Shown in pieces: positions 1,881-43,005 of a DNA stretch of 64,000 nt (position 1 is the first letter of the stretch; the number at the start of each line of letters is the position of its first letter). The position numbers were made by a program, and so were the translations under genes. Source of the DNA: Synergistaceae bacterium (GTDB lineage Bacteria; Synergistota; Synergistia; Synergistales; Aminobacteriaceae); the NCBI GenBank assembly GCA_017470485.1, contig JAFUYQ010000012.1, positions 21,535 through 85,534 on the forward strand, read 5' to 3'. The notes beneath the pieces are model-generated. The model did no database searches. It saw nothing but the letters and a program-made list of their open reading frames with translations, and was not told the origin of the DNA.

Positions 1881-1917
1881 ATTCAGCACACTGGGATATA
1901 GTGTGCTGAATTTTTTA
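1881..1917 (+). terminator. Rho-independent terminator
   Basis: Perfect 12-bp stem attcagcacact / agtgtgctgaat with a 7-nt loop, followed by a T-run (tttttt). Confidence 0.65.
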
Positions 1918-1949
1918 TGTTACACTTTAGTTTATTCTTTTGATGAGAG

Positions 1950-3899
1950 GTGCGGAAGTTTATGGAAAGCATTATCGAAATCGCGTTAGCATGTATTCTT
2001 TCAACCGTTCTTTTTGCTGCATTGATAATATACATCTCGAAACACCCGCAGAAAAGTACAAAGCCGCTGAAAATAATATTTGTCTTCATGTTCATATCCG
2101 GCATGATTCTATACTGCTACTGTCATTATCAGGTTCTCGAAAAGGCAAATCAGTCAGGTAATCCGGAAAACAGCCTTTTCGCATGGGCTAAAGACGCTTG
2201 GGCTTCAAAAATACTGTACATCTCAATGAGATCCGTCATCGACGTAGGAATGATGTTCTACGGACGCGCCGACAGTGATGCGTTCTACAAGCTGGACGAG
2301 GCTAAAGACCCGTTATATGTCTGCTTGTTCTGGCTGATTAACGTGGTTTCTTTCTGTACGGCTGCAAGCGCATTGCTCATACATTTCGGGAACGACCTCC
2401 TCAGATGGATTAAGATAGCACAAACAAAAGTCTCCGACATTGATTTAGTGTACGGCGTAAGCCCTGACTCGATTGCGTTCGGAAGAAATATCGCTGAAAC
2501 AAAGGGCAGAATGCTCATCTATGTTGACAGCATAATCGGAGAGGATTTCGAGGCTTCAATACGTGATATGGGCGGACTTAGCTATTCAGATAAAGACGCT
2601 CTGAAAGCTACTCAGTCATTCCTGAAAGAAATAAGAGTCAGACCACTGAAAACAAGACTCAGGCTTTTCGCTCTGTCCTATAAATACGATAATAACCTTC
2701 AATACGCCCGTATGATGTCCGAAAGTCTCCAGAAAGCCGGAATACTCCCCGAACAAACTGAACTTGTTCTTCTCGGCTCGGACGAATGGAAGGGAATTAT
2801 ATTCCAGTCCGGCGAAAATCAATACGGTTACGGGAAAGTTCTCTCGTTCGATGAATATGAGATGAGCGCACGCCTCCTCATCAATAAATATCCTCCGTGC
2901 AATGCAATACATTTCGACACAGACGGACGGGCGACTGAAAACATGGAAGTTCTCATAGTAGGGTTCGGGCGAATCGGTCATGAAGTCCTCCGAAAACTCA
3001 TCGCTAACGGACAGTTTGAGGGAAGCCGCTTCCATGCCACAATATATCAGCCTGATGTCGAAAACATCGCAGGGTTCTTCAAGTCTCAGTATCCTCTGAT
3101 GTTTGCGAAGGAAAATTACGACATCGACTTCCAGCTTCACGGCGGAAGAGGCAGCGAAATTTTCAGCTTCCTACGCGAAAACGCTCCCAAACTGAAATAT
3201 ATCGTCATATGCCTTGAGGACAGAGACCTCGCAAGAGACATAGCCGTCCGAATGGTCGAGAGTCTTCAAATCATGGGGTACTCCCTGAACGTTTACACCT
3301 GCGACTCGAAAAGCGTCAGATGTTACTCACAGTACGCAAGAGAGTGCGAAACTTACATGATATGCGACTCGGATCTCCTTTATTCCGGCGAACTCGACCG
3401 ATACGCTATGGAACTTAACCACCGTTACTGCGGAGGTTCAAGCCTCAATGAAGACTGGAAGAAGTGCGCTTACTTCGACAGAATGAGCAGCAGGGCAAGC
3501 GTTGATTACCTCATACCCGTAATCCGCAGAATAACGGCGAAAACTAACTCAAATGCCCTGACGCATGAACAGAGAGAAAATCTTGCGAAGAGCGAACATT
3601 TAAGATGGTGTGCGTTCCATTACACTTTCGGATTTGATGTCATGGACAAAAACGAGTTCATTCAGCGCGTTAAAGACCGTCAGAACGAAATCAGGCAGTT
3701 CGGGAAGTCATCAATCAAAGTAACGAAGGATAACAAGAAATTAACTCATGTATGTCTTGTTGACTGGGACGAACTTGACGAGATTTCGAGGATTGAGAAC
3801 TCACTGACTCACGGGAACAGGGACTACAAAGAATCTGACAGAATGAATGTCGATATGGTCGCTGAAATCATGAGAGATAACGGGGAAAAATCAAATTAA
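1950..3899 (+). CDS. Membrane protein with cytoplasmic Rossmann-like (TrkA-N-type) segment(s) and C-terminal RyR-domain-like repeats
   Basis: GTG 1950 or ATG 1962. About 4 hydrophobic helices lie in the first 150 aa. GxGxxG motif in MEVLIVGFGRIGHEVLRKLIANG. C-terminal motifs YAMELNHRY...W...SSRASVDYL and LAKSEHLRWCAFHYTFGF...KLTHVCLVDWDELDE...YKESDRMNV resemble the RyR domain consensus (LAexiHexW....GW...k.hP.LvpydeL.e..K..DR) as I recall it. Confidence 0.55.
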   Translation: MRKFMESIIEIALACILSTVLFAALIIYISKHPQKSTKPLKIIFVFMFISGMILYCYCHYQVLEKANQSGNPENSLFAWAKDAWASKILYISMRSVIDVGMMFYGRADSDAFYKLDEAKDPLYVCLFWLINVVSFCTAASALLIHFGNDLLRWIKIAQTKVSDIDLVYGVSPDSIAFGRNIAETKGRMLIYVDSIIGEDFEASIRDMGGLSYSDKDALKATQSFLKEIRVRPLKTRLRLFALSYKYDNNLQYARMMSESLQKAGILPEQTELVLLGSDEWKGIIFQSGENQYGYGKVLSFDEYEMSARLLINKYPPCNAIHFDTDGRATENMEVLIVGFGRIGHEVLRKLIANGQFEGSRFHATIYQPDVENIAGFFKSQYPLMFAKENYDIDFQLHGGRGSEIFSFLRENAPKLKYIVICLEDRDLARDIAVRMVESLQIMGYSLNVYTCDSKSVRCYSQYARECETYMICDSDLLYSGELDRYAMELNHRYCGGSSLNEDWKKCAYFDRMSSRASVDYLIPVIRRITAKTNSNALTHEQRENLAKSEHLRWCAFHYTFGFDVMDKNEFIQRVKDRQNEIRQFGKSSIKVTKDNKKLTHVCLVDWDELDEISRIENSLTHGNRDYKESDRMNVDMVAEIMRDNGEKSN

Positions 3900-3916
3900 C
3901 TGGAGGAAGATTCATC

Positions 3917-6016
3917 ATGGAACAGGAATTTAAGTATTACGCTTTCATCAGCTACAGCCACAAAGACCAGAAAATCGCCAAGCAGCTTCAGAAGCGTCTC
4001 GAACGCTATCATCTTCCGGCCACTATCATTGACGATCACCCTGACCTTCCCAAGAAACTCAGTCCAATCTTCGTTGACGAGTCAGACCTCGTAGCAATAG
4101 ACGGAAGCCTGAGCGATTCACTGAAAGGCTTTCTCAGTGAATCGAATTATCTCATTGTGATTTGTTCGCCCAACAGCGCAAAATCTCCGTACTGCAATGA
4201 CGAAGTGGACTACTTCATCAACACGCTGCACAGAGCGGATCACATTATCCCATTGATTGTCGGAGGATTACCGCACGCCCAAGACCCCTCGCTGGAATGC
4301 TTCACTCCTGCACTTCTGTCGCTTCCCAGAGAGCTTGAGCCGCTGGGAATTGACCTCAAGACGTTCGGAAAGCGTGATTCTTTTCTCAGGGTCATGGCCA
4401 CGATGCTGAGGCTGAATCTTGACTACTTCAAGTCGAGGGAGGACGAGGCGAGAAAAAGAAGGTTGATGATATTTGGGGCAATGGCGGCGGTACTTGCGGT
4501 GATTTTTGGGGTGCTTATCTGGTACAGTGTCGAGACATTTATTCTTATGCGGAGCGGTAGTTCAATTTCACAATTCTATTTTGGCCGAATGTATGAACGA
4601 ATGAAGAATTACGACAAGGCAAAGGAGTGGTATGAAAAGGCCGCCGCTAACGGTGATGCCACTGCTCAATTTAATCTGGGCTACATGTACGATAAAGGTT
4701 TGGGAGTAGAGCAGGACTACGCAAAGGCTGTAGAGTTGTACGAAAAGGCCGCTACTCAAGGTGATGCCGATGCTCAAAATAATCTAGGCATGATGTATGC
4801 ACATGGTCAAGGAATAGAGCAGGATTATGCAAAAGCTATAGAATGGTACGGAAAGGCAGTTGCTCAGGGTAATGCCTCTGCTCAAAATAATCTGGGCTAC
4901 ATGTACGATAAAGGCTTGGGAGTAAAGCAGGATTACGCAAAGGCTAGTGAATGGTACGAAAAGGCCGCCGCTCAGGGTCTTGCTAGTGCTCAAAATAATC
5001 TGGGCTACATGTACGATAAAGGTTTGGGAGTAAAGCAGGATTACGCAAAGGCTAGTGAATGGTACGAAAAGGCCGCCGCTCAGGGTCTTGCTAGTGCTCA
5101 AAATAATCTAGGCATGATGTACCATAACGGTCGTCAGGGAGTAAAGAAGGATTACGCAAAAGCTATAGAGTTGTACGAAAAGGCCACCGCTCAAGGTCAT
5201 GCCACTGCTCAAAATAATCTGGGCTATATGTACCAACATGGTCAAGGAGTAGAACAGGATTACGCAAAAGCTATAGAATGGTACGAAAAGGCAGTTGCTC
5301 AGGGTAATGCCGCTGCTCAAAATAATTTGGGCTGTATGTACGAACATGGTCGTGGAGTAAAGCAGGATTACGCAAAGGCTAGAGAGTTGTACGAAAAGGC
5401 CACCGCTCAAGGTCATGCCACTGCTCAATTTAATCTGGGCGTGATGTATTATAACGGTCAGGGAGTAAAGCAGGATTACGCAAAGGCTAGAGAGTTGTAC
5501 GAAAAGGCCGCTGCTCAAGGCGATGCCGATGCTCAAAATAATTTGGGCTGGATATACAATAAAGGCTTGGGAGTAGAGCAGGACTACGCAAAGGCTGTAA
5601 AGTTGTACGAAAAGGCCGCCGCTCAGGGGCAGGCCAATGCTCAAAATAATCTGGGCAATATGTACGAATACGGTAAGGGAGTAAAAAAGGATTACGCGAA
5701 AGCTATTGAATGGTACGAAAAGGCGGCAGCTCAGGGTCATGCCAAAGCTCAAGATAATTTTGTTGATATTGCCTTTATGTACGTCTGGGGCTGGGGAGTA
5801 GAACAGGATTATGTGAAAGGTAGGGAGCTGTATGAAAAGGCAGCTGCTCAGGGTAATGCTAAGGCTCAAAATGCTCTTGGCTTTATGTACGATAACGGCT
5901 TGGGAGTAGAACAGGACTACGCAAAAGCTATAGAATGGTACGAAAAGGCGGCAGCTCAAGGATTTTCAGACGCTCAAAAACGGCTGGACGAACTGAAAAA
6001 CTCACAGGCCAAATAA
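3917..6016 (+). CDS. TIR domain - single TM - ~13 Sel1-like repeat (SLR) protein
   Basis: GGAGG RBS. N-terminus YYAFISYSHKDQKIAKQL...NYLIVICSPNSAKSPYCNDEVDYF is TIR-like, with the conserved Glu at codon 96 (nt 4202-4204). TM at about aa 183-203, preceded by KRR. Then 13 units of 36 aa of type AQNNLGxMYxxGxGVxQDYAKAxEWYEKAAAQG (Sel1 signature). Confidence 0.85.
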   Translation: MEQEFKYYAFISYSHKDQKIAKQLQKRLERYHLPATIIDDHPDLPKKLSPIFVDESDLVAIDGSLSDSLKGFLSESNYLIVICSPNSAKSPYCNDEVDYFINTLHRADHIIPLIVGGLPHAQDPSLECFTPALLSLPRELEPLGIDLKTFGKRDSFLRVMATMLRLNLDYFKSREDEARKRRLMIFGAMAAVLAVIFGVLIWYSVETFILMRSGSSISQFYFGRMYERMKNYDKAKEWYEKAAANGDATAQFNLGYMYDKGLGVEQDYAKAVELYEKAATQGDADAQNNLGMMYAHGQGIEQDYAKAIEWYGKAVAQGNASAQNNLGYMYDKGLGVKQDYAKASEWYEKAAAQGLASAQNNLGYMYDKGLGVKQDYAKASEWYEKAAAQGLASAQNNLGMMYHNGRQGVKKDYAKAIELYEKATAQGHATAQNNLGYMYQHGQGVEQDYAKAIEWYEKAVAQGNAAAQNNLGCMYEHGRGVKQDYAKARELYEKATAQGHATAQFNLGVMYYNGQGVKQDYAKARELYEKAAAQGDADAQNNLGWIYNKGLGVEQDYAKAVKLYEKAAAQGQANAQNNLGNMYEYGKGVKKDYAKAIEWYEKAAAQGHAKAQDNFVDIAFMYVWGWGVEQDYVKGRELYEKAAAQGNAKAQNALGFMYDNGLGVEQDYAKAIEWYEKAAAQGFSDAQKRLDELKNSQAK
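4880..5095 (+). repeat. Near-perfect tandem duplication, 2 x 108 bp (three SLR-length... one SLR unit each) inside the TIR-SLR gene
   Basis: 4880-4987 and 4988-5095 differ at one position (aaaggCttggg vs aaaggTttggg). Both encode AQNNLGYMYDKGLGVKQDYAKASEWYEKAAAQGLAS. Confidence 0.9.
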
Positions 6017-6038
6017 TTCTGAAGGAGGTTTTATCAAA

Positions 6039-6683
6039 ATGACATCAATGAATCTGACTGTTGACGGTAAATTACTGGACATGCTCACACGCTCAAGCTC
6101 CGCGCTCGGCGTTGAGGTCAGTCAGGTATTGAACGACGCTGTGGGAGCGTACTTCCGCAAACTCGTTACCGACGGAAAAATCCCGATGGACGAAGCCTGC
6201 TCCTCATTGAGCAGTAACACCCCTGAGACTGAATACACCCTCGCTGACTCAAAATCCCTCAGCGACCACAGAAAATACAGCCTCACTCAAAAAGAACGCT
6301 CAGCATTAAGCAAAACTCAGCTCAAAAACGCCGGCAAGGCCGAGAACGGCGACCCTAAAGCCCAGAACGTCATGGGAACTTATTACGAGAGCGGAAACGG
6401 TGTCGAGAAAGATTACATGAAAGCGATTTACTGGTACACTAAATCAGCGGAGCAGGGAAACTCTAACGCTCAGTATCATCTCGCTGTCCTCTATAACAAG
6501 GTCGAGGATAACCCGTTGAAGTCGTATTACTGGTTTGAGGTAGCGAGGCTTTGCGGTTTCAATGTAACGGCGATTCATCAGGATTATATGCTGAGATTGA
6601 CTGAGAGGCTTTCGGAGCGTCAGATAAAACTCGCTCAGGACGAAGCCTTAAAGAAATTCAACGCAATACAGAAAGGAGAATAA
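6039..6683 (+). CDS. Ribbon-helix-helix-like N-terminus fused to Sel1-like repeats
   Basis: AGGAGG RBS. MNLTVDGKLLDMLTRSSSALGVEVSQVLNDAVGAYFRKL fits the beta-alpha-alpha RHH (CopG/Arc) pattern. The C-terminal half has SLR units (AQNVMGTYYESGNGVEKDYMKAIYWYTKSAEQGNSNAQYHLAVLY). Confidence 0.6.
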   Translation: MTSMNLTVDGKLLDMLTRSSSALGVEVSQVLNDAVGAYFRKLVTDGKIPMDEACSSLSSNTPETEYTLADSKSLSDHRKYSLTQKERSALSKTQLKNAGKAENGDPKAQNVMGTYYESGNGVEKDYMKAIYWYTKSAEQGNSNAQYHLAVLYNKVEDNPLKSYYWFEVARLCGFNVTAIHQDYMLRLTERLSERQIKLAQDEALKKFNAIQKGE

Positions 6684-6688
6684 ATCAC

Positions 6689-7945
6689 ATGAACATACTC
6701 ATAATCGGCGGAGGCGGACGTGAACATGTAATCGCTAAGCGTGTCGCCCAAAATCCCAACGTCAGCAAAATTTACGCTCTTCCCGGCAACGGCGGTATCT
6801 CTCAAATCGCTGAATGCGTCAAAATTTCAGCGGAAGACATTGACAACATAACATCATTCGCGAAGACTCATGACATTGATTTCGCTGTTGTCGCTCCCGA
6901 TGACCCTCTCGCGCTCGGAGCTGTTGACAGGCTTGAGGCTGAGGGCATTAAATGTTTCGGCCCCTCGAAGAACGCCGCTGTCATTGAGGGAAGCAAGGTT
7001 TTCGCTAAGGAACTCATGGCGAAATACAACATACCTACGGCAAAATACGAGGTCTTCACGGATATTGACAAGGCGTTGTCTTACGCCGCACTTTCGGACT
7101 GCCCAATCGTGATTAAGGCTGACGGTCTGGCTAAAGGCAAGGGCGTAACTGTCGCTGAGAATTTCCAGCAGGCTAGAGAGGCGATAATGTCCTGCATGAA
7201 GGATAAGGCGTTCGGCCATAGCGGTGAGCGAATCTTAATTGAGGAATGCTTAACGGGAAAAGAAGTTACGGTTTTGGCGTTCACTGACGGTGATACTATT
7301 ATCCCTATGGTTTCGTCAATGGATCATAAGCGCGCCTATGACGGCAACAAAGGCCCTAATACCGGCGGAATGGGCGTAATAGCTCCGAACCCTTACTACA
7401 CTCCTGAGATTGCTGAACAGTGCATGAGGACTATATTCCTTCCGACAATGAAGGCCATGAACAATGAAGGCCGAAAGTTCAAAGGCTGTCTTTATTTCGG
7501 ATTAATGCTGACGGATAAAGGCTCTAAAGTCATTGAGTATAACTGCCGTTTCGGAGACCCTGAAGCTGAAGCGGTGCTTCCCTTAATGGAAAGCGATTTG
7601 CTTGACGTTATGATGGCGGTGAGAGACGAGAGACTCTCTGATGTCCCAGTGAGGTTCAAAGAGGGAGCGTCATGCTGTGTGGTCTGCGCGTCATCAGGGT
7701 ATCCGGCCTCATACCTTACGGGTTACGAGATAGACTTCGGGAACGCTGAAGGGATTGAGGGTGTTGAGGTTTTCCACGCAGGAACTAAGAAGGAGGACGG
7801 AAAGTATTACACTTCGGGCGGAAGAGTCTTGGCGGTCAACGCTGTGAGCGGTGATTTAGAGTCCGCGCGAGAAAAGGCTTACAAGGCTGTTGACCAAGTA
7901 AACTTTGAGGGAATGCGTTACAGAACTGATATAGGAACTCTCTAA
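6689..7945 (+). CDS. purD: Phosphoribosylamine--glycine ligase
   Basis: 418 aa. MNILIIGGGGREHVIAKR..., ATP-grasp core and GGRVL near the C-terminus are typical of PurD. Confidence 0.95.
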   Translation: MNILIIGGGGREHVIAKRVAQNPNVSKIYALPGNGGISQIAECVKISAEDIDNITSFAKTHDIDFAVVAPDDPLALGAVDRLEAEGIKCFGPSKNAAVIEGSKVFAKELMAKYNIPTAKYEVFTDIDKALSYAALSDCPIVIKADGLAKGKGVTVAENFQQAREAIMSCMKDKAFGHSGERILIEECLTGKEVTVLAFTDGDTIIPMVSSMDHKRAYDGNKGPNTGGMGVIAPNPYYTPEIAEQCMRTIFLPTMKAMNNEGRKFKGCLYFGLMLTDKGSKVIEYNCRFGDPEAEAVLPLMESDLLDVMMAVRDERLSDVPVRFKEGASCCVVCASSGYPASYLTGYEIDFGNAEGIEGVEVFHAGTKKEDGKYYTSGGRVLAVNAVSGDLESAREKAYKAVDQVNFEGMRYRTDIGTL

Positions 7946-11673: not shown

Positions 11674-14600
11674 TTGAAGCGAAATAATATTGAACAGTAT
11701 CTCGGAAAAATTGTCGAGATTATGTTAATGCCTGACGGACACAAAATGTCAGGCCATCTTCTCAGATGTGAAGAAGATCTTATGGTTCTCAAGGACGAAT
11801 CGGGCGAGTCAATGTTCGCTTACCCTATGATATGGGGTATAAGACCGCTGGGAAATCCTCAGCCTTCCCAGCCTTCTTCTTCCCCTTCTCCTGCGCCTGC
11901 GCCGTCTGCATCGCCTTCGCCCGTTGCCTCATCTTCAAACGCTGAGACTGTAAAAGAGCCTGAACCTGAGAAAATCCCGGAGCCTCAGCCCGTCAAAACT
12001 GAATCTGAAGCTGAATCCAAGCCTGAGCCGAAGCCTCTGCCCGTGTCCAGAGCCGAGACTGTAAAAGAGCCTGAGCCTGAGAAAGATTCAGAGCCTTTAG
12101 AGGCGGTATTTCTTGATGAGCTTGACGAATGCTATGACGACCTTGAGACTAAAGCAGACACTTACATTCTAAATTCTGATTACGTCCGAAAGTTCAGGAC
12201 TGACAGGCACGACAGAATACAGAACACTATGGAAAGCATACTGACTAAGTATTCGTACGCCGTGAGCGTTCACGAGGACAGGCCGTATTCAATGAGAATG
12301 AGGCAGATCGCTGACGAGGCTAAAAATTTGTGGCGCGCTAACCAGTCGAATGTCTCAGCATCGGAAATTTACGGCTTTGTTCTTTACCTTATGGGCGAGA
12401 ACGCGAGGAGTGTTAAAGTCTACATGGGCATACATGATTTCAGGGCGGCATTCACTGCTGCAACCGCTGCACCTTCGAGAATGCTTGCAGCCGCGTGCCT
12501 CATAGTAAGCGAGCCTTTAACATCACGAAATTTCGCGGCTCTTCTAAAACTTGAACCGCCCCAGATTAACGCTCTGCTCCGCTGGATAATGAATAATGCC
12601 GTTCTTAATGAAGGTTATCCCGAAGAACACAGGTCATTATGTTTCAAAAATGTCTGCGCTCTCTCATGGAAATTATTAGGCTTCAATTCATCTTCATGGC
12701 CCGAAAAAAAACTCTTATTCTCTCAGGCTAATATTGATGCTCTAAACGAATGGCTTTCCTCCCAGCCGTCTGACATGAAAATTATTGAGGACGCTCAGAA
12801 ACTTTCAGATAAGGCCAACTCCGCCGCCCGTGATGAAACTGAAAGGTACAGGCGTATTGACTGGAAGAACCAGAGATTTGAAGGTGAATTTGACTTCTTC
12901 AACCCCAACAGGGATAAACTTTACGGCTTCATTAAAAGTCCAATTCTGAAACGCTTTAATGTCCCTCTGCGTTCAGAAGGTTCGGTATTCGTCCATTTGA
13001 ATCAGGTTGAGGACAGGGCATTGCGCCGGAAATTGCTGACCTGCGGAAAAATGAAGCCGATGTTCCGCGTAACCTTCAGGCTCGGAAACAACGTTGAAGG
13101 CCCCGCAGCCTATGACGTGAAAGAAAAGGTTGATGAATCTCAAGTATCGCTTTCAGTAGACATGATGTCGGCATTATCAGAGGAGGGCGAAATTGATTTT
13201 TACTCGCGCTATAACGATCCGCCTTTCGGGAAAGTAAGAGCTAAAGGCGACAAAAGCACTTACACATTCAACGAGAAGAATATTACTGACCCTGTTCTTG
13301 CTGTATTCCTTGAGGTTGACCCCTCGCCTGAAGGACACCCCGTAAGATTCACAAAGAGCATGAGCAGCAGCGGAAAGATTCAGATTCAGAATGTCGGTTC
13401 GGCGATTCCTTTTCCTGAAGAGAGATTAAAGGCTTGGGAGGACTCAGGATTAATCAGGAAGGCTAAAGAGAGACTGAATATCCCTGATGAGGAAGAAGCA
13501 GCAGAGGATTCCCCCAAAAATGAAAAAGAGCCCGAAGAATATACTGCCGAGATTAACGATGAAGTAGAGGAGTTAATTTCACGCGGCTATATGCCTCTTG
13601 AGCCTTATACTCCTGAGACTAAGGGTCTTAAACCTAACGGAAAGCAGCAGGAGGATACATCTCCCAGAAAGCCCTCAGTGCCTGAAACTTTCAGCGAGCT
13701 TCCCAAGTTTTTGCAGGACAGAATCATGAAGACTTCAACCGCCGGAAGATACAGCACTCAATACTTGACTGACACATATTACGCGAAGGGTCATTTCCGC
13801 GAGGTGAGGGCTAATTATCTCTCGATGGTGGGGCGTTTCAACAGCGATAATATTTCCCTGACCAATGCCGAAAAGGCCGAACGCTGTTTCATAATGGCGC
13901 GTTACGTATACAATTTCTTTCTTCTTGCGGACAGTTCCGAAAAGAAACAGTACCCCTCATCTGAGGAGGACAACATAAGGATTATGGCCTACAAGGGATT
14001 AGAGTATCTTCTCTATTCCCAGCTTGACGGCGCAAAGAAGCATGAAGCGAATTACGACACCGCCCGAAGGTACTGCCTCTTGAAACTCGCCGATGAGATT
14101 CAGGAGACGAGACGGATTGACGAGAATAACGAGTGGCTGAGGATATACATATATTCATACTTTGTGAACGGCCTGAGATTTCACAGCTCGTCAGGGAAGT
14201 GGTCGGCTCAGAACGTCTCGCTTTCGGGGTGCAGTCTTCTTGAGTTCAACGACTTCGGGAAATTCTTTGACGGTCTCATAACTTTGGCATACCTTACGGG
14301 CGAGCAGTTAATTTTCCCGACACTGAAAGCACTTCTTCACAGCCTTGAATATTCGGGGAGCCTCTTGTCGAAACTTGGACTTGACGCGAATGTTTTCTCT
14401 CAGGAAAACGCTGACGCAAAAATCCGCGAGGCATTCAAGAGGGTGTTTGAGGGTTACGGCGACCGCAGGGACGCATTGATTCAGGACGCTGAAGTGAGAT
14501 TATCGCCCGAACTTCTGAGGATACTGAGCGTTCAGAAAATGATAGTCCGCCTGATGAAGACTGAATTAACGAGGATTCTCAAGGCCACGCCTGAAACTCT

Positions 14601-14943
14601 TGACGAGGCGTTGAAGAAGGCTAATCCCATTCTTGCCTCAGACGAATATTCCAACTCTCTGGCCAAGACAAAGAGGAAATATAATCCTGACGCAGGACTT
14701 CTTGACGTTCTCCCGATAAACGTTCTTGGGGCGGTAATGAGGCAGTACTGGGGCGAATGCTTCGGGGCGTATTTCGGCGGAAAACCTTACGGGGCTTACT
14801 GGAAGGAGAGGTTCGCAAAACTTCAGTGGGTAAGAGATCCTGTGTTTCACGCGCACCCTGAGTATATCAAGAATGAGGATATTGATGAAGTCAAGGCAGT
14901 ATGCACCGAGATAACAGAATGCCTTAGCATCAAGAAAAAATAG
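11674..14943 (+). CDS. Large multidomain protein: Sm-like barrel, Pro-rich linker, helical region, two cold-shock-like OB folds, C-terminal HEPN-like (Rx4H) domain
   Basis: TTG start 9 nt after AAGGAG, 15 nt after the purL stop. N-terminus LGKIVEIMLMPDGHKMSGHLLRCEEDLMVLKD...IWGIRPL is Sm/DUF2642-like. Low-complexity PSQPSSSPSPAPAP with repeated AETVKEPEPEK. GEFDFFNPNRDKLYGFIKSP...SVFVHLNQVED and GEIDFYSRYNDPPFGKVRAKG are CSD-like. The C-terminus LGAVMRQYWGECF...LQWVRDPVFHAHPEYI resembles Swt1-type HEPN (R at 14833-14835, H at 14848-14850). Confidence 0.65.
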   Translation: MKRNNIEQYLGKIVEIMLMPDGHKMSGHLLRCEEDLMVLKDESGESMFAYPMIWGIRPLGNPQPSQPSSSPSPAPAPSASPSPVASSSNAETVKEPEPEKIPEPQPVKTESEAESKPEPKPLPVSRAETVKEPEPEKDSEPLEAVFLDELDECYDDLETKADTYILNSDYVRKFRTDRHDRIQNTMESILTKYSYAVSVHEDRPYSMRMRQIADEAKNLWRANQSNVSASEIYGFVLYLMGENARSVKVYMGIHDFRAAFTAATAAPSRMLAAACLIVSEPLTSRNFAALLKLEPPQINALLRWIMNNAVLNEGYPEEHRSLCFKNVCALSWKLLGFNSSSWPEKKLLFSQANIDALNEWLSSQPSDMKIIEDAQKLSDKANSAARDETERYRRIDWKNQRFEGEFDFFNPNRDKLYGFIKSPILKRFNVPLRSEGSVFVHLNQVEDRALRRKLLTCGKMKPMFRVTFRLGNNVEGPAAYDVKEKVDESQVSLSVDMMSALSEEGEIDFYSRYNDPPFGKVRAKGDKSTYTFNEKNITDPVLAVFLEVDPSPEGHPVRFTKSMSSSGKIQIQNVGSAIPFPEERLKAWEDSGLIRKAKERLNIPDEEEAAEDSPKNEKEPEEYTAEINDEVEELISRGYMPLEPYTPETKGLKPNGKQQEDTSPRKPSVPETFSELPKFLQDRIMKTSTAGRYSTQYLTDTYYAKGHFREVRANYLSMVGRFNSDNISLTNAEKAERCFIMARYVYNFFLLADSSEKKQYPSSEEDNIRIMAYKGLEYLLYSQLDGAKKHEANYDTARRYCLLKLADEIQETRRIDENNEWLRIYIYSYFVNGLRFHSSSGKWSAQNVSLSGCSLLEFNDFGKFFDGLITLAYLTGEQLIFPTLKALLHSLEYSGSLLSKLGLDANVFSQENADAKIREAFKRVFEGYGDRRDALIQDAEVRLSPELLRILSVQKMIVRLMKTELTRILKATPETLDEALKKANPILASDEYSNSLAKTKRKYNPDAGLLDVLPINVLGAVMRQYWGECFGAYFGGKPYGAYWKERFAKLQWVRDPVFHAHPEYIKNEDIDEVKAVCTEITECLSIKKK

Positions 14944-40763: not shown

Positions 40764-40839
40764 AGGTCCGTGGCTCAATTGGCAGAGCACTGGTCTCCAA
40801 AACCGGGGGCTGCAGGTTCGAGTCCTGCCGGGCCTGCCA
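40764..40839 (+). tRNA. trnW: tRNA-Trp (anticodon CCA)
   Basis: 76 nt. Acceptor stem AGGTCCG/CGGGCCT (one G-U pair), D-loop TCAATTGGCAGA, anticodon loop CT-CCA-AA (CCA at 40797-40799), T-arm GGTTCGAGTCC, encoded 3' GCCA. It is in the classic position upstream of secE-nusG. Confidence 0.9.
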
Positions 40840-42869: not shown

Positions 42870-43005
42870 TCATAAAATCTATCGCAATCCGAAGACAGCA
42901 GGGGCGTTCGCTTAATAATCCTGCTCAGGAGTGAGAAAGAGTAATCAATGCTCCTCCTGTGTCAAAACGGGGGGAGCTTGTTCGTAAAATAAAGGAGGTG
43001 AAATA
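42870..43005 (+). promoter_or_regulatory. Possible L10 (rplJ) autoregulatory leader
   Basis: A 156-nt untranslated gap lies between rplA and rplJ, where the L10(L12)4-binding leader normally sits. Only short local pairings (gcagg...cctgc) are visible by eye. Confidence 0.35.

Follow-up and report, generated by a model that had tools for sequence, protein, structure and literature searches.

A recurring bacterial two-gene module of TIR receptor and RyR-domain protein as a possible counterpart of the animal cADPR-to-RyR axis

Described TIR, RyR and RCK systems compared with the locus

Thoeris systems of types I-XI have been catalogued, including a type X that combines ThsB with an 'ion channel' effector, and several ThsB genes can occur alongside the effectors of a Thoeris locus (Yirmiya et al., 10.64898/2025.12.03.692087). 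Type X is the one published system that joins TIR proteins to an ion channel, and in its logic it is the closest published system to the locus described here, three open reading frames (ORF1, ORF2 and ORF3) of a rumen bacterium within an analysed stretch of 64,000 nucleotides (the window). As in Thoeris, a TIR domain with a glutamate at the catalytic position adjoins a constant effector, often with several variable TIR genes per effector, and in that effector a membrane-acting part is joined to a domain that putatively binds a nucleotide signal. Identity with type X was ruled out by comparison with a validated Bacillus-type locus (L084), in which both the effector and the TIR are unrelated to ours. 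The L084 effector (4298-4987) is an all-membrane protein of 229 aa with no Pfam match; it differs greatly from ORF1 in size, shares no Pfam match with it and gave no BLASTP alignment to it better than E = 34. The type X TIRs are small soluble ThsB proteins (~167 aa, PF08937 only), whereas ORF2 is a 699-aa TIR_2-TM-Sel1 receptor. Four TIR signature peptides specific to ORF2 and its partner-type relatives were absent from the Table S1 entries listed, which is weak evidence, while the generic probe FISYRHSD was found among those listed entries in type IV TIRs only (10.64898/2025.12.03.692087). A preliminary description of the locus had proposed that no named TIR system matches it, and this agrees both with the unrelated type X components and with PADLOC, which returned no system match at the locus. 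Its Thoeris-like reading held for the pairing of a TIR protein with a Rossmann/RyR membrane partner, but a role in phage defence is an analogy and not a finding.

ORF1 also resembles the RCK-gated K+ channels GsuK (4gx0), MthK, Slo1/BK and CASTOR/POLLUX, in which a membrane pore unit is followed by tandem RCK/Rossmann domains, and its type-B paralogues share a true TTVGYGD pore with these channels. It differs from them in an extra N-terminal TM helix, in having the non-canonical MFxGxND where they have the filter, and in a C-terminal RyR domain, present in none of the four, and identity is 9-12%. Proteins with RyR domains (PF02026) include the phage RyDEP glycosidases and sponges (PMC13232231), a Bacteroides thetaiotaomicron 'putative ryanodine receptor' (3nrt) and the animal RyR1-3, in which the domain is homologous. 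Phage RyR-domain proteins were reported in a May 2026 preprint to bind or cleave 2'/3'cADPR, binding at nanomolar affinity and with known 3'cADPR contact residues, and the R12 domain of human RyR3 was found to bind adenine ligands; the authors raised the question of whether the RyR domains of channels read cADPR-type signals (PMC13232231). ORF1 appears to conserve the positions through which these proteins contact 3'cADPR and adenine ligands (H-x-x-W, the second His and the Asp). It differs in that its one repeat contains an inserted helix of ~25 residues, in the fusion of the domain to a channel-like protein and in its adjacent TIR genes.

A further likeness is to animal TLRs, receptors that likewise cross the membrane once and have a solenoid of repeats as ectodomain and a TIR in the cytoplasm, and to the SARM1/CD38-cADPR-RyR axis, in that a TIR of the putative cADPR-making type is paired with a RyR-domain channel. 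Compared with TLRs, ORF2 is inverted (N-terminal TIR, type II), and the ectodomains are as a rule of the Sel1, TPR or propeller type in place of LRR. Homology between the animal axis and the module is confined to the TIR and RyR domains, and the resemblance in design may be convergent.

Operon layout and history of the purH-purD junction

The three genes lie on the forward strand as ORF1 (1950-3899, 649 aa), ORF2 (3917-6016, 699 aa) and ORF3 (6039-6683, 214 aa), separated by 17 nt and 22 nt and followed after 5 nt by purD (start at 6689), in agreement with the coordinates and spacing first given for them. A GGAGG-type ribosome-binding site precedes each of ORF2, ORF3 and purD. For ORF1 the ATG at 1962 is the more likely start, because GAGAGGTG precedes it and the resulting length agrees with a 645-aa NCBI protein (P0001). 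The features are as follows.

1881..1917, +, hairpin with T-run resembling an intrinsic terminator, directly 5' of ORF1 (RNA fold)
1918..1961, +, leader and ribosome-binding site GAGAGGTG ahead of the probable ORF1 start (L004 alignment, sequence, P0001)
1950..2423, +, ORF1 membrane domain, residues 1-158 (AlphaFold helices, conservation, hhalign)
2436..3359, +, ORF1 cytoplasmic tandem Rossmann/RCK-like domains (AlphaFold model, Foldseek)
3552..3899, +, ORF1 C-terminal RyR (Repeat12-type) domain with inserted helix (family profile, fold match)
3938..4321, +, ORF2 cytoplasmic TIR domain (PF13676, ThsB_TIR, alignments)
4322..4531, +, ORF2 conserved juxtamembrane helix and single TM helix at about residues 183-203 (sequence)
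4562..6016, +, ORF2 predicted extracytoplasmic Sel1 solenoid of 13 repeats (Sel1 profile)
6039..6683, +, ORF3, small cytoplasmic protein, N-terminus possibly RHH, one or two Sel1 repeats

The hairpin had been described as a strong terminator, and its folding bears this out (-24.4 kcal/mol, z = -7.0 for the 61 nt at 1870-1930, with the T-run after it); a consensus terminator scan did not detect it. No RNA elements were found near the locus with Rfam. A sigma-70 scan, which is uninformative for this phylum, returned no promoter between the hairpin and ORF1.

Upstream of the hairpin are two fragments of the flanking genes, a purD-5' fragment (1259-1292, 97% identical to 6687-6720) and a purH-3' fragment (1803-1873, 89% identical to 380-452). 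These had been read as scars of a once short junction into which ORF1-3 were wedged as cargo. The fragments are real, but they do not show such a wedging. At a locus from another Synergistaceae species (L004) the purH stop is followed directly by the same hairpin (with differences in the loop), the leader, the ribosome-binding site and ORF1, an arrangement that rules out the scars as a mark of the arrival of ORF1-3. The scars therefore belong to a later insertion upstream of a module already present, and this later insert consists of a coiled-coil gene, the partial purD, a toxin-antitoxin pair and the partial purH.

Domains of the encoded proteins

From its sequence ORF2 is predicted to be a type II membrane protein in which a single TM helix separates a cytoplasmic TIR domain from 13 extracellular Sel1 repeats. 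The TIR domain matched PF13676 (TIR_2) over residues 10-124 (E = 2.7e-13, 50.9 bits against a cut-off of 28) and also ThsB_TIR (E = 1.5e-6), which confirms its initial assignment. Glu96 (codon GAA, 4202-4204) had been placed at the catalytic position; it aligns with the alphaC Glu of the TIR domains of TLR10 and Cat1, and an equivalent residue was kept in 48 of 56 partner TIRs. The residues KRR lie N-terminal of the TM helix, from which the TIR is predicted to be inside and the C-terminus outside, and the same arrangement of TIR, linker and TM was observed in partner proteins and in fusions of TIR to ORF1. The Sel1 region (E = 2.7e-148, 13 stretches) forms a tandem array at the DNA level, with a period of 108 nt and 12.2 copies (Tandem Repeats Finder). 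The number of Sel1 repeats varies between strains, and a contig from another sample (L001) encodes a 663-aa version of ORF2 that is shorter by 36 residues, the length of one repeat.

ORF1 was expected to be a membrane protein with a Rossmann segment, and both features were found. In the AlphaFold model (pLDDT 87.6) the membrane domain contains three TM helices and one re-entrant, pore-helix-like helix, with helices at residues 2-31, 37-69, 84-103 and 121-158. At the position of the K+-channel TVGYGD lies a conserved but non-canonical 'MFxGxND' segment (MFYGRAD in ORF1), and D98, V99, M102, F103 and G105 are conserved across the family. ORF1 had no Ion_trans_2 match in Pfam and no TVGYG-type selectivity filter. 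When the membrane domain was compared with the type-B pore by hhalign (probability 62%, E = 7.5e-5), MFxGxND was aligned to TVGYGD, and homology of the domain to a pore is only moderately supported. The cytoplasmic part carries RCK1 (about residues 163-320) and RCK2 (about residues 332-470), the latter bearing GFGRIG; the motif LIVGFGRIGHEV noted earlier is present in ORF1. The best Foldseek matches were RCK/Rossmann folds, namely GsuK 4gx0 (E = 8e-5), hSlo1, MthK and the CASTOR gating ring (all with probability 1.0, E = 8e-5 to 2e-3), and the N-terminal Rossmann motif of GAPDH matched weakly. Scans of the Pfam, PADLOC and NCBIfam libraries with ORF1 returned nothing, and the full-length ORF1 profile against PDB sequences found just the weak GAPDH motif.

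The RyR signal emerged from the PDB search with the C-terminal profile of the ORF1 family only and not with the full-length profile. With the C-terminal profile, 56 of 57 matches were RyR proteins, including 6uhi (E = 1.5e-10), 6ug5 (5.6e-5), 3nrt (1.5e-4) and RyR3 (2.4e-4), and a model of the domain (pLDDT 92.8) superimposed on 3nrt and 6uag with an rmsd of ~3 A and a target TM-score of 0.6. ORF1 alone scored below the PF02026 cut-off (E = 0.1, 13.3 bits against 27.4), and paralogues that align with it across 'EH(L/K)RW' exceed the Pfam threshold. The RyR-like C-terminus noted earlier thus stands at the level of the family, by profile and by fold. Across the family H550, W553 and H600 hardly vary, and all type A members have D630; these four are likely counterparts of the RyR-domain residues that contact 2'/3'cADPR, having been paired with H75, W78, H100 and D117 of RyDEP through motif spacing and the B. 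thetaiotaomicron alignment.

The make-up first suggested for ORF3, a ribbon-helix-helix N-terminus joined to Sel1 repeats, was sustained in part. A single Sel1 repeat was above threshold (E = 1.7e-12), but the RHH N-terminus is unproven, its match to RHH_3 being below the cut-off (E = 0.19, 12.2 bits against 21.6; model positions 4-42 of 44 covered). We observed no ORF3 homologue among 80 related loci, and a metagenome scan gave a match to the Sel1 region only and no homologue. ORF3 was thereby ruled out as a conserved third component, and the sequence comparison places it as a lineage-specific accessory outside the conserved module.

Recurrence of the gene pair and its possible function

Synteny was examined in 80 loci with ORF1 homologues from two phyla, of which six were left out of the statistics because the greedy ORF caller had not picked up their channel gene. 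In 37 of the remaining 74 loci a TIR gene was found within two genes of the channel gene, almost always on the same strand. Of the 248 genes lying no more than two positions from a channel gene, 41 were TIR genes, compared with 1 of the 406 genes at four or more positions (16.5% versus 0.25%), a roughly 65-fold enrichment. Gene order differs between the phyla, while the linkage of TIR and ORF1 holds in both, with short gaps. About half of the channel loci had no TIR gene within 10 kb and kept the RyR ligand residues nonetheless. The partner proteins carry an N-terminal TIR and a TM helix at about residue 180-200, followed by ectodomains that vary between Sel1, TPR, beta-propeller, LRR (in L043) and YD-like repeats. 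In several loci one channel is accompanied by more than one TIR gene, with TIR-NB-ARC-TPR proteins among the products. In four fusion proteins the ORF2-type TIR-TM module is joined to the cytoplasmic body of ORF1; these fusions retain a two-TM hairpin only, so a classical pore is not needed in every member of the family. The suggestion that homologues of ORF1 and of the TIR protein would be neighbours in other genomes is borne out by these loci and fusions.

A total of ~25 neighbouring paralogues were bona fide channels, with Ion_trans_2 matches to 8.7e-16, a TTVGYGD filter and PF02026 matches to 3e-9, and ORF1 homologues were often paired with such a canonical K+ channel paralogue. Clustered at 50% identity, the ORF1 family falls into at least 252 groups. 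It is common among anaerobes of the rumen and gut and is annotated only as 'hypothetical protein'; one member is found in cultured Butyrivibrio fibrisolvens D1. Its distribution is patchy and its genomic position variable. Phage or plasmid cargo was ruled out, with no relatives among IMG/VR contigs or GenBank phages and a single plasmid match, to a 243-kb non-mobilizable Butyrivibrio replicon. A location in defence islands, also raised at first and the kind of setting through which the Thoeris types were discovered, was not observed: among 150 pooled neighbours PADLOC found no recurrent classical system and only scattered matches (WYL twice, mad3/mad8 and single PDC families), a weak negative for want of a genome-wide baseline.

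With somewhat better than even confidence, we read ORF1 and ORF2 as a two-gene TIR signalling module in which an NAD-derived signal made by the TIR gates a channel-like RyR/RCK effector. ORF2 would be a single-pass receptor with its Sel1 solenoid toward the periplasm and its TIR toward the cytoplasm. The putative trigger, a ligand or perturbation sensed outside the cell, would cluster ORF2 receptors and assemble the TIR active site around Glu96, and the predicted enzyme would then convert NAD+ to an ADP-ribose-derived signal, for example a cADPR isomer. ORF1 is built like an RCK-gated K+ channel, with a pore-like membrane part, a non-canonical filter, two RCK/Rossmann domains and the C-terminal RyR domain. 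From the phage proteins (PMC13232231) we infer that this RyR domain may bind the TIR product, possibly jointly with the dinucleotide site of RCK2, which would shift the gating ring and open the membrane domain. Ions would then flow or the membrane would depolarise, leading to growth arrest (abortive infection) or to a physiological response. The RyR ligand residues are kept in loci without a TIR gene, so that the ligand of this domain may instead be a common adenine nucleotide. A complete bacterial path from a TLR-like receptor through a TIR-made cADPR-type messenger to a RyR-domain-gated cation channel is a tentative proposal, to which we give well under an even chance.

The same wiring could serve envelope or environment sensing, with a TLR-like receptor tuning cation flux through the channel in response to an extracellular cue (for example a polysaccharide, a fragment of the wall, or a factor from a host or competitor), and we regard this as a real possibility, a little short of even. 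The sensor domains are predicted to lie outside the cytoplasm, and most neighbours encode glycoside hydrolases, transporters, an EAL-domain protein and response regulators rather than defence functions. The lack of relatives on phage or viral contigs points the same way, as does the position of the window copy inside the pur operon, common to the second species (L004). However, conflict systems typically show features seen here, namely variable sensors on a constant module, arrays of several TIR genes and TIR-NB-ARC-TPR neighbours. Some loci also have WYL regulators and a toxin-antitoxin pair close by, and the family is patchy and variable in position. NAD(H) is bound by KTN/RCK domains, and a response to NAD+/ADP is reported for GsuK, the best fold match of ORF1. 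Together with the GxGxxG dinucleotide-binding motif of RCK2, this is consistent with signalling in a different direction, in which the TIR consumes NAD+ or shifts NAD+/ADPR and ORF1 is a channel gated by metabolic state, its RCK and RyR sites reading NAD(H), ADPR or ATP with no dedicated second messenger. The equal conservation of the RyR ligand residues where a locus has no TIR, and the adenine ligands of the human RyR3 R12 domain (PMC13232231), also fit such a scheme. We consider it unlikely, since the TIR partners are variable and sensor-like while ORF1 is constant, as in a sensor/effector pair, and a membrane-tethered TIR at receptor-like copy number would be a poor depleter of bulk NAD+.

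More doubtful still is a TIR acting as a non-enzymatic adaptor, as in animal TLR signalling, that would contact ORF1 directly in the membrane with no small molecule. Both proteins are membrane-anchored, the natural fusions show that physical linkage works and the juxtamembrane helix is strongly conserved, but so is the catalytic-position Glu in most partners; soluble TIR-STAND proteins also accompany the channel, and ORF1 bears a domain type now known to bind cADPR isomers. That the genes are functionally unrelated, with ORF1 a housekeeping K+-type channel and the TIR incidental to it, was already disfavoured and appears very improbable. The absence of a TIR gene from half of the loci and the frequent pairing with a canonical K+ channel would agree with it, but the local TIR enrichment in two phyla with different gene orders, the co-orientation, the short gaps and the fusion proteins all argue against it.

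Our favoured reading, of a TIR-made signal gating a channel-like effector, extends what is known from Thoeris, where TIR signalling with dedicated effectors is established, in three features that would be new. A transmembrane TIR receptor with interchangeable extracellular sensors would place perception at the envelope and not in the cytoplasm, an RCK-type channel-like effector was found in none of the defence catalogues searched, and a RyR domain would be the predicted sensor of the signal. The recurring and so far undescribed pair supplies a hypothesis of function for a family of 'hypothetical protein' entries, and the operon offers a small, clonable and natural pair of TIR and RyR-domain channel that bears on the question raised with the phage proteins (PMC13232231). 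If the complete path from receptor to channel proves real, it would provide the first natural RyR domain through which an ion channel senses a TIR product as its ligand. It would also be an antecedent in prokaryotes of the disputed animal cADPR-RyR axis, or else a striking parallel to it.

Gene order and history of the purH-purD junction

Three co-directional genes (ORF1, ORF2 and ORF3) lie between purH, which ends at 513, and purD, which starts at 6689, and the coordinates and spacing in the preliminary description were reproduced exactly, with gaps of 17 nt between ORF1 and ORF2, 22 nt between ORF2 and ORF3, and 5 nt between ORF3 and purD. Strong GGAGG-type ribosome-binding sites (RBS) precede ORF2, ORF3 and purD. 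The start of ORF1 is more probably the ATG at 1962, behind GAGAGGTG, giving a 645-aa protein that is 100% identical to P0001, deposited for a Synergistaceae MAG. Three more genes sit between purH and a strong hairpin ahead of ORF1. Both this hairpin and the purD-5' and purH-3' fragments described earlier were confirmed.

Features of the purH-purD junction (strand where noted)
529-1233: protein with TM and coiled-coil segments, of repetitive charged (E/R/K/A-rich) sequence
1259-1292: purD-5' fragment, 34 nt, 97% identity to 6687-6720
1307-1555: ParE/RelE-like toxin (ParE_toxin E=1.6e-4, 22.6 bits, just below the cut-off of 23)
1556-1792: 78-aa ORF following the toxin, in toxin-first order
1803-1873: purH-3' fragment, 71 nt, 89% identity to 380-452
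1881-1917: hairpin, -24.4 kcal/mol, z = -7.0, 0/200 shuffles as stable
1950-3899, +: ORF1
3917-6016, +: ORF2
6039-6683, +: ORF3

The fragments had been read as a trace of the arrival of ORF1 to ORF3, and this reading did not hold. At L004, a locus from another Synergistaceae species with an ORF1 of 73% identity, the purH stop is followed directly, with no intervening genes, by the hairpin, leader, RBS and ORF1; the hairpin equals that of the window apart from loop differences, and leader and RBS are the same. The order purH-hairpin-ORF1 is therefore the older one in this clade, and the window's scars stem from a subsequent insertion or rearrangement, which placed the coiled-coil gene, the purD-5' stub, the toxin-antitoxin pair and the purH-3' stub upstream of the hairpin. 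This composite insertion between purH and the hairpin (529-1873) would fit a Campbell-type single-crossover integration at the purD start. The module was found at unrelated genomic positions in other Synergistaceae and is therefore mobile over longer timescales. Because the hairpin precedes ORF1 and ORF3 lies so close to purD, purD and purL are probably co-transcribed with the module. Directly 3' of purL is a 1089-aa ORF (11674-14943) with no significant Pfam domain (best match the TonB_N polyproline region, E=0.019); the contig's public annotation likewise lists no Pfam match for it. The only Rfam matches within the window were a tRNA gene (40764-40836) and a ribosomal protein L10 leader (42871-42992), both unrelated to the module.

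Domain composition of ORF1 and ORF2

ORF1 had no match in Pfam, PADLOC or NCBIfam. The best PDB folds for an AlphaFold2 model built from 92 homologues (pLDDT 87.6, pTM 0.77) were RCK-gated K+ channels or gating rings, including GsuK (4gx0, E=8e-5), human Slo1, MthK and LjCASTOR. The membrane helices and Rossmann segment noticed earlier were recovered in this model.

Domains in the AlphaFold2 model of ORF1 (residues)
2-31, 37-69, 84-103 (shorter) and 121-158: helices of the membrane domain
~163-320 and 332-470: Rossmann/RCK-like domains, the second with GFGRIG
C-terminal domain: helical

The canonical selectivity filter is absent from the ORF1 membrane domain, where a conserved 'MFxGxND' segment takes its place. 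ORF1 homologues of this kind (type A) usually lie, in Firmicutes loci, alongside a ~520-aa paralogue (type B) that is above the Pfam thresholds for Ion_trans_2 and RyR (PF02026). Across 93 family members, Ion_trans_2 was matched in 25 (best 8.7e-16) and RyR in 25 (best 3e-9), and the TTVGYGD filter of these paralogues is of textbook form. Profile-profile comparison of the ORF1 membrane domain with the type B pore gave a match of moderate support (prob 62%, E=7.5e-5). Tandem paralogues were observed among loci L019-L083 (e.g. L034, 8424-10013 and 10004-11848), their genes often overlapping by a few bases, with one protein of ~520 aa carrying a canonical TTVGYGD K+ pore, RCK and RyR, and an ORF1-like one of ~620 aa carrying the non-canonical pore segment. 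The pairing points to a channel of heteromeric make-up, or to a pore subunit working with a regulatory one. Two loci encode ~1140-aa ORF1 homologues with C-terminal papain-like (Peptidase_C1) and lectin-like domains (L037, 10004-13426; L071, 9980-13399), with a clostripain (C11) gene downstream and one to three TIR-TM genes upstream.

RyR-like motifs had been proposed for the ORF1 C-terminus, and the proposal holds. Searching the PDB with the last 190 residues of all 93 members returned RyR proteins in 56 of 57 matches, among them a Bt-hRyR chimera (E=1.5e-10), the Bacteroides thetaiotaomicron 'putative ryanodine receptor' (5.6e-5 to 1.7e-4) and RyR3 Repeat12 (2.4e-4), and 'HaCLVpWdeL' of the profile pairs with 'HPCLVPYDEL' in the RyR alignment. 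The ORF1 'EHLRW' (549-553) aligns with 'EHKRW' of the paralogue, at the start of its Pfam RyR match. For residues 476-649 modelled separately (pLDDT 92.8), the only structurally coherent folds were RyR-repeat structures, with weak Foldseek E-values (rmsd ~3 A, target TM-score ~0.6 and identity 20% for 3nrt and 6uag; probability 0.95 for 6uhi). PF02026 matched ORF1 alone at only E=0.1, because the repeat is interrupted by a ~25-residue helix. In phage RyR-domain proteins (RyDEP), which either bind 2'/3'cADPR with nanomolar affinity or cleave these molecules, the contacts are H75, W78, H100 and D117, reported by the authors as conserved across PF02026 and animal RyR R12 (PMC13232231, a May 2026 preprint). 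By motif spacing these would correspond to ORF1 H550, W553, H600 and D630. Types A and B alike show next to no variation at E549, H550, W553 and H600, and type A none at D630.

The TIR domain proposed for ORF2 is present at residues 10-124 (PF13676 E=2.7e-13; ThsB_TIR E=1.5e-6), separated by a conserved helix and one hydrophobic segment (~183-203) from 13 Sel1 repeats (E=2.7e-148). Because a KRR cluster lies on the N-terminal side of the hydrophobic segment, the TIR domain is predicted to be cytoplasmic and the Sel1 solenoid extracytoplasmic. Glu96 (GAA, 4202-4204) does occupy the catalytic-Glu position suggested for it, aligning with the alphaC Glu in both TLR10 and the NADase Cat1. At the DNA level the Sel1 array (4625-5958) is a 108-nt tandem repeat of 12.2 copies with 78% matches, and some adjacent repeats are identical in protein sequence. 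A near-identical contig from another sample (L001) carries an ORF2 version of 663 vs 699 aa (11956-13947); the 36 residues equal one repeat, and the difference reflects either a polymorphism in repeat number or a collapsed assembly.

Linkage of ORF1 relatives with TIR genes

A survey of one genome per GTDB species gave 168 loci with ORF1 relatives. The best 80 of these 168 were analysed, and came from rumen and gut Synergistaceae/Fretibacterium (51-73% identity) and from Butyrivibrio, other Lachnospiraceae, Oscillospiraceae and Solobacterium (31-41% identity). An exhaustive profile search placed the family at a minimum of 252 clusters at 50% identity (E<=1e-30). Using our own ORF calling, clustering and iterated TIR HMM, a TIR gene was found within two genes of the channel gene(s) in 37 of 74 loci and within four in 39 of 74. 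Of the 248 genes no more than two positions away, 41 encode TIR proteins, vs 1 among the 406 lying four or more positions away. The partners are nearly always co-oriented with the channel gene, upstream or downstream of it. Nearly all begin with a TIR, carry a TM at ~180-200 and end in a domain that varies (Sel1, TPR, PQQ/WD40-like propellers, LRR or YD-like repeats), while some are short. Among 56 partner TIR domains, 48 keep the equivalent of Glu96. Four retrieved proteins (P0105, P0106, P0110, P0111) are fusions in which the cytoplasmic body of ORF1 is joined to a TIR-linker-TM module of ORF2 type. In some loci a channel is accompanied by more than one TIR gene, and soluble TIR-NB-ARC-TPR STAND proteins are among the products. 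The pair also occurs in a cultured strain, Butyrivibrio fibrisolvens D1, whose pNP243 has a 'TIR domain-containing protein' gene directly upstream of an ORF1 homologue annotated as 'hypothetical protein'; the two genes are WAA20_RS20255 and WAA20_RS20260.

The synteny expected for all three genes was therefore found, through adjacency and fusions, for ORF1 and the TIR gene only; an ORF3 homologue was present in none of the 80 loci, and a metagenome scan gave only a Sel1-region match. The RHH match of ORF3 was sub-threshold, and ORF3 is a lineage-specific accessory, not the module component first supposed. About half of the channel loci had no TIR gene within 10 kb, such as many A+B pairs and Butyrivibrio loci with an upstream WYL regulator, and these loci keep the RyR residues. 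A three-gene block recurs beside channel genes in six loci (L033, L053, L054, L056, L064, L079). Its products are a ~890-970-aa protein bearing triple-helix repeats of collagen-like type, a small TIR-TM protein (~282 aa) for which no catalytic-position Glu could be aligned, and a ~687-aa TIR-TM-TPR protein. At L013 (Synergistaceae; 2623-5541), the ORF1 homologue is followed by a gene for a DUF4062-AAA_16(STAND)-TPR protein in place of a TIR-TM one; DUF4062 has been grouped with TIR-like domains.

Known systems and proposed signalling

The window module resembles Thoeris in the logic of TIR signalling. Yirmiya et al. (December 2025, 10.64898/2025.12.03.692087) list 29 predicted effector types, of which type X, ThsB with an 'ion channel', was validated. 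We retrieved a type X locus, taking the validated TIR of Bacillus sp. BH32 as the starting point. The effector of this locus, 229 aa long and all-membrane, had no Pfam match and no similarity to ORF1. The TIR, soluble and 167 aa long, belongs to PF08937. The window module is therefore distinct from type X. In its main text, the study of Yirmiya et al. mentions neither the RyR domain nor Sel1, and 'ryanodine' appears once, on animal cADPR signalling. A term search did not find 'RyR' in the portion of the supplements covered. In the part of its TIR table searched, four ORF2/partner-specific peptides had 0 matches, and a fifth, generic probe (FISYRHSD) matched type IV TIRs only. The pairing of TIR and RyR-channel was not described in the literature retrieved for PF02026, for the RyR domain in prokaryotes or potassium channels, and for transmembrane TIR with Sel1.

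On balance we lean toward a two-gene TIR signalling module, in which ORF2, as a membrane TIR receptor, would generate an NAD-derived signal and ORF1, as an RyR/RCK channel-like effector, would read it. The preliminary interpretation survives in part, for the two-gene TIR module with an RyR-type ORF1, and not for the ORF3 component or the insertion scenario. The role of the module may lie in phage defence or in sensing of the envelope and environment. Neighbour genes of the ORF1-family loci gave no clear defence-island signal, and relatives were absent from the viral contigs and phage genomes searched. WYL regulators frequently accompany defence systems. A WYL/WCX regulator lies immediately upstream of the ORF1 homologue, beside a GH31 glycosidase gene, in three Butyrivibrio loci with no TIR gene (L023-L025; e.g. 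L025, 8956-9945). We regard the module as a variant of TIR signalling through a ligand-gated effector, built from unusual components that are also timely: a TLR-like bacterial receptor and an RyR-domain channel.
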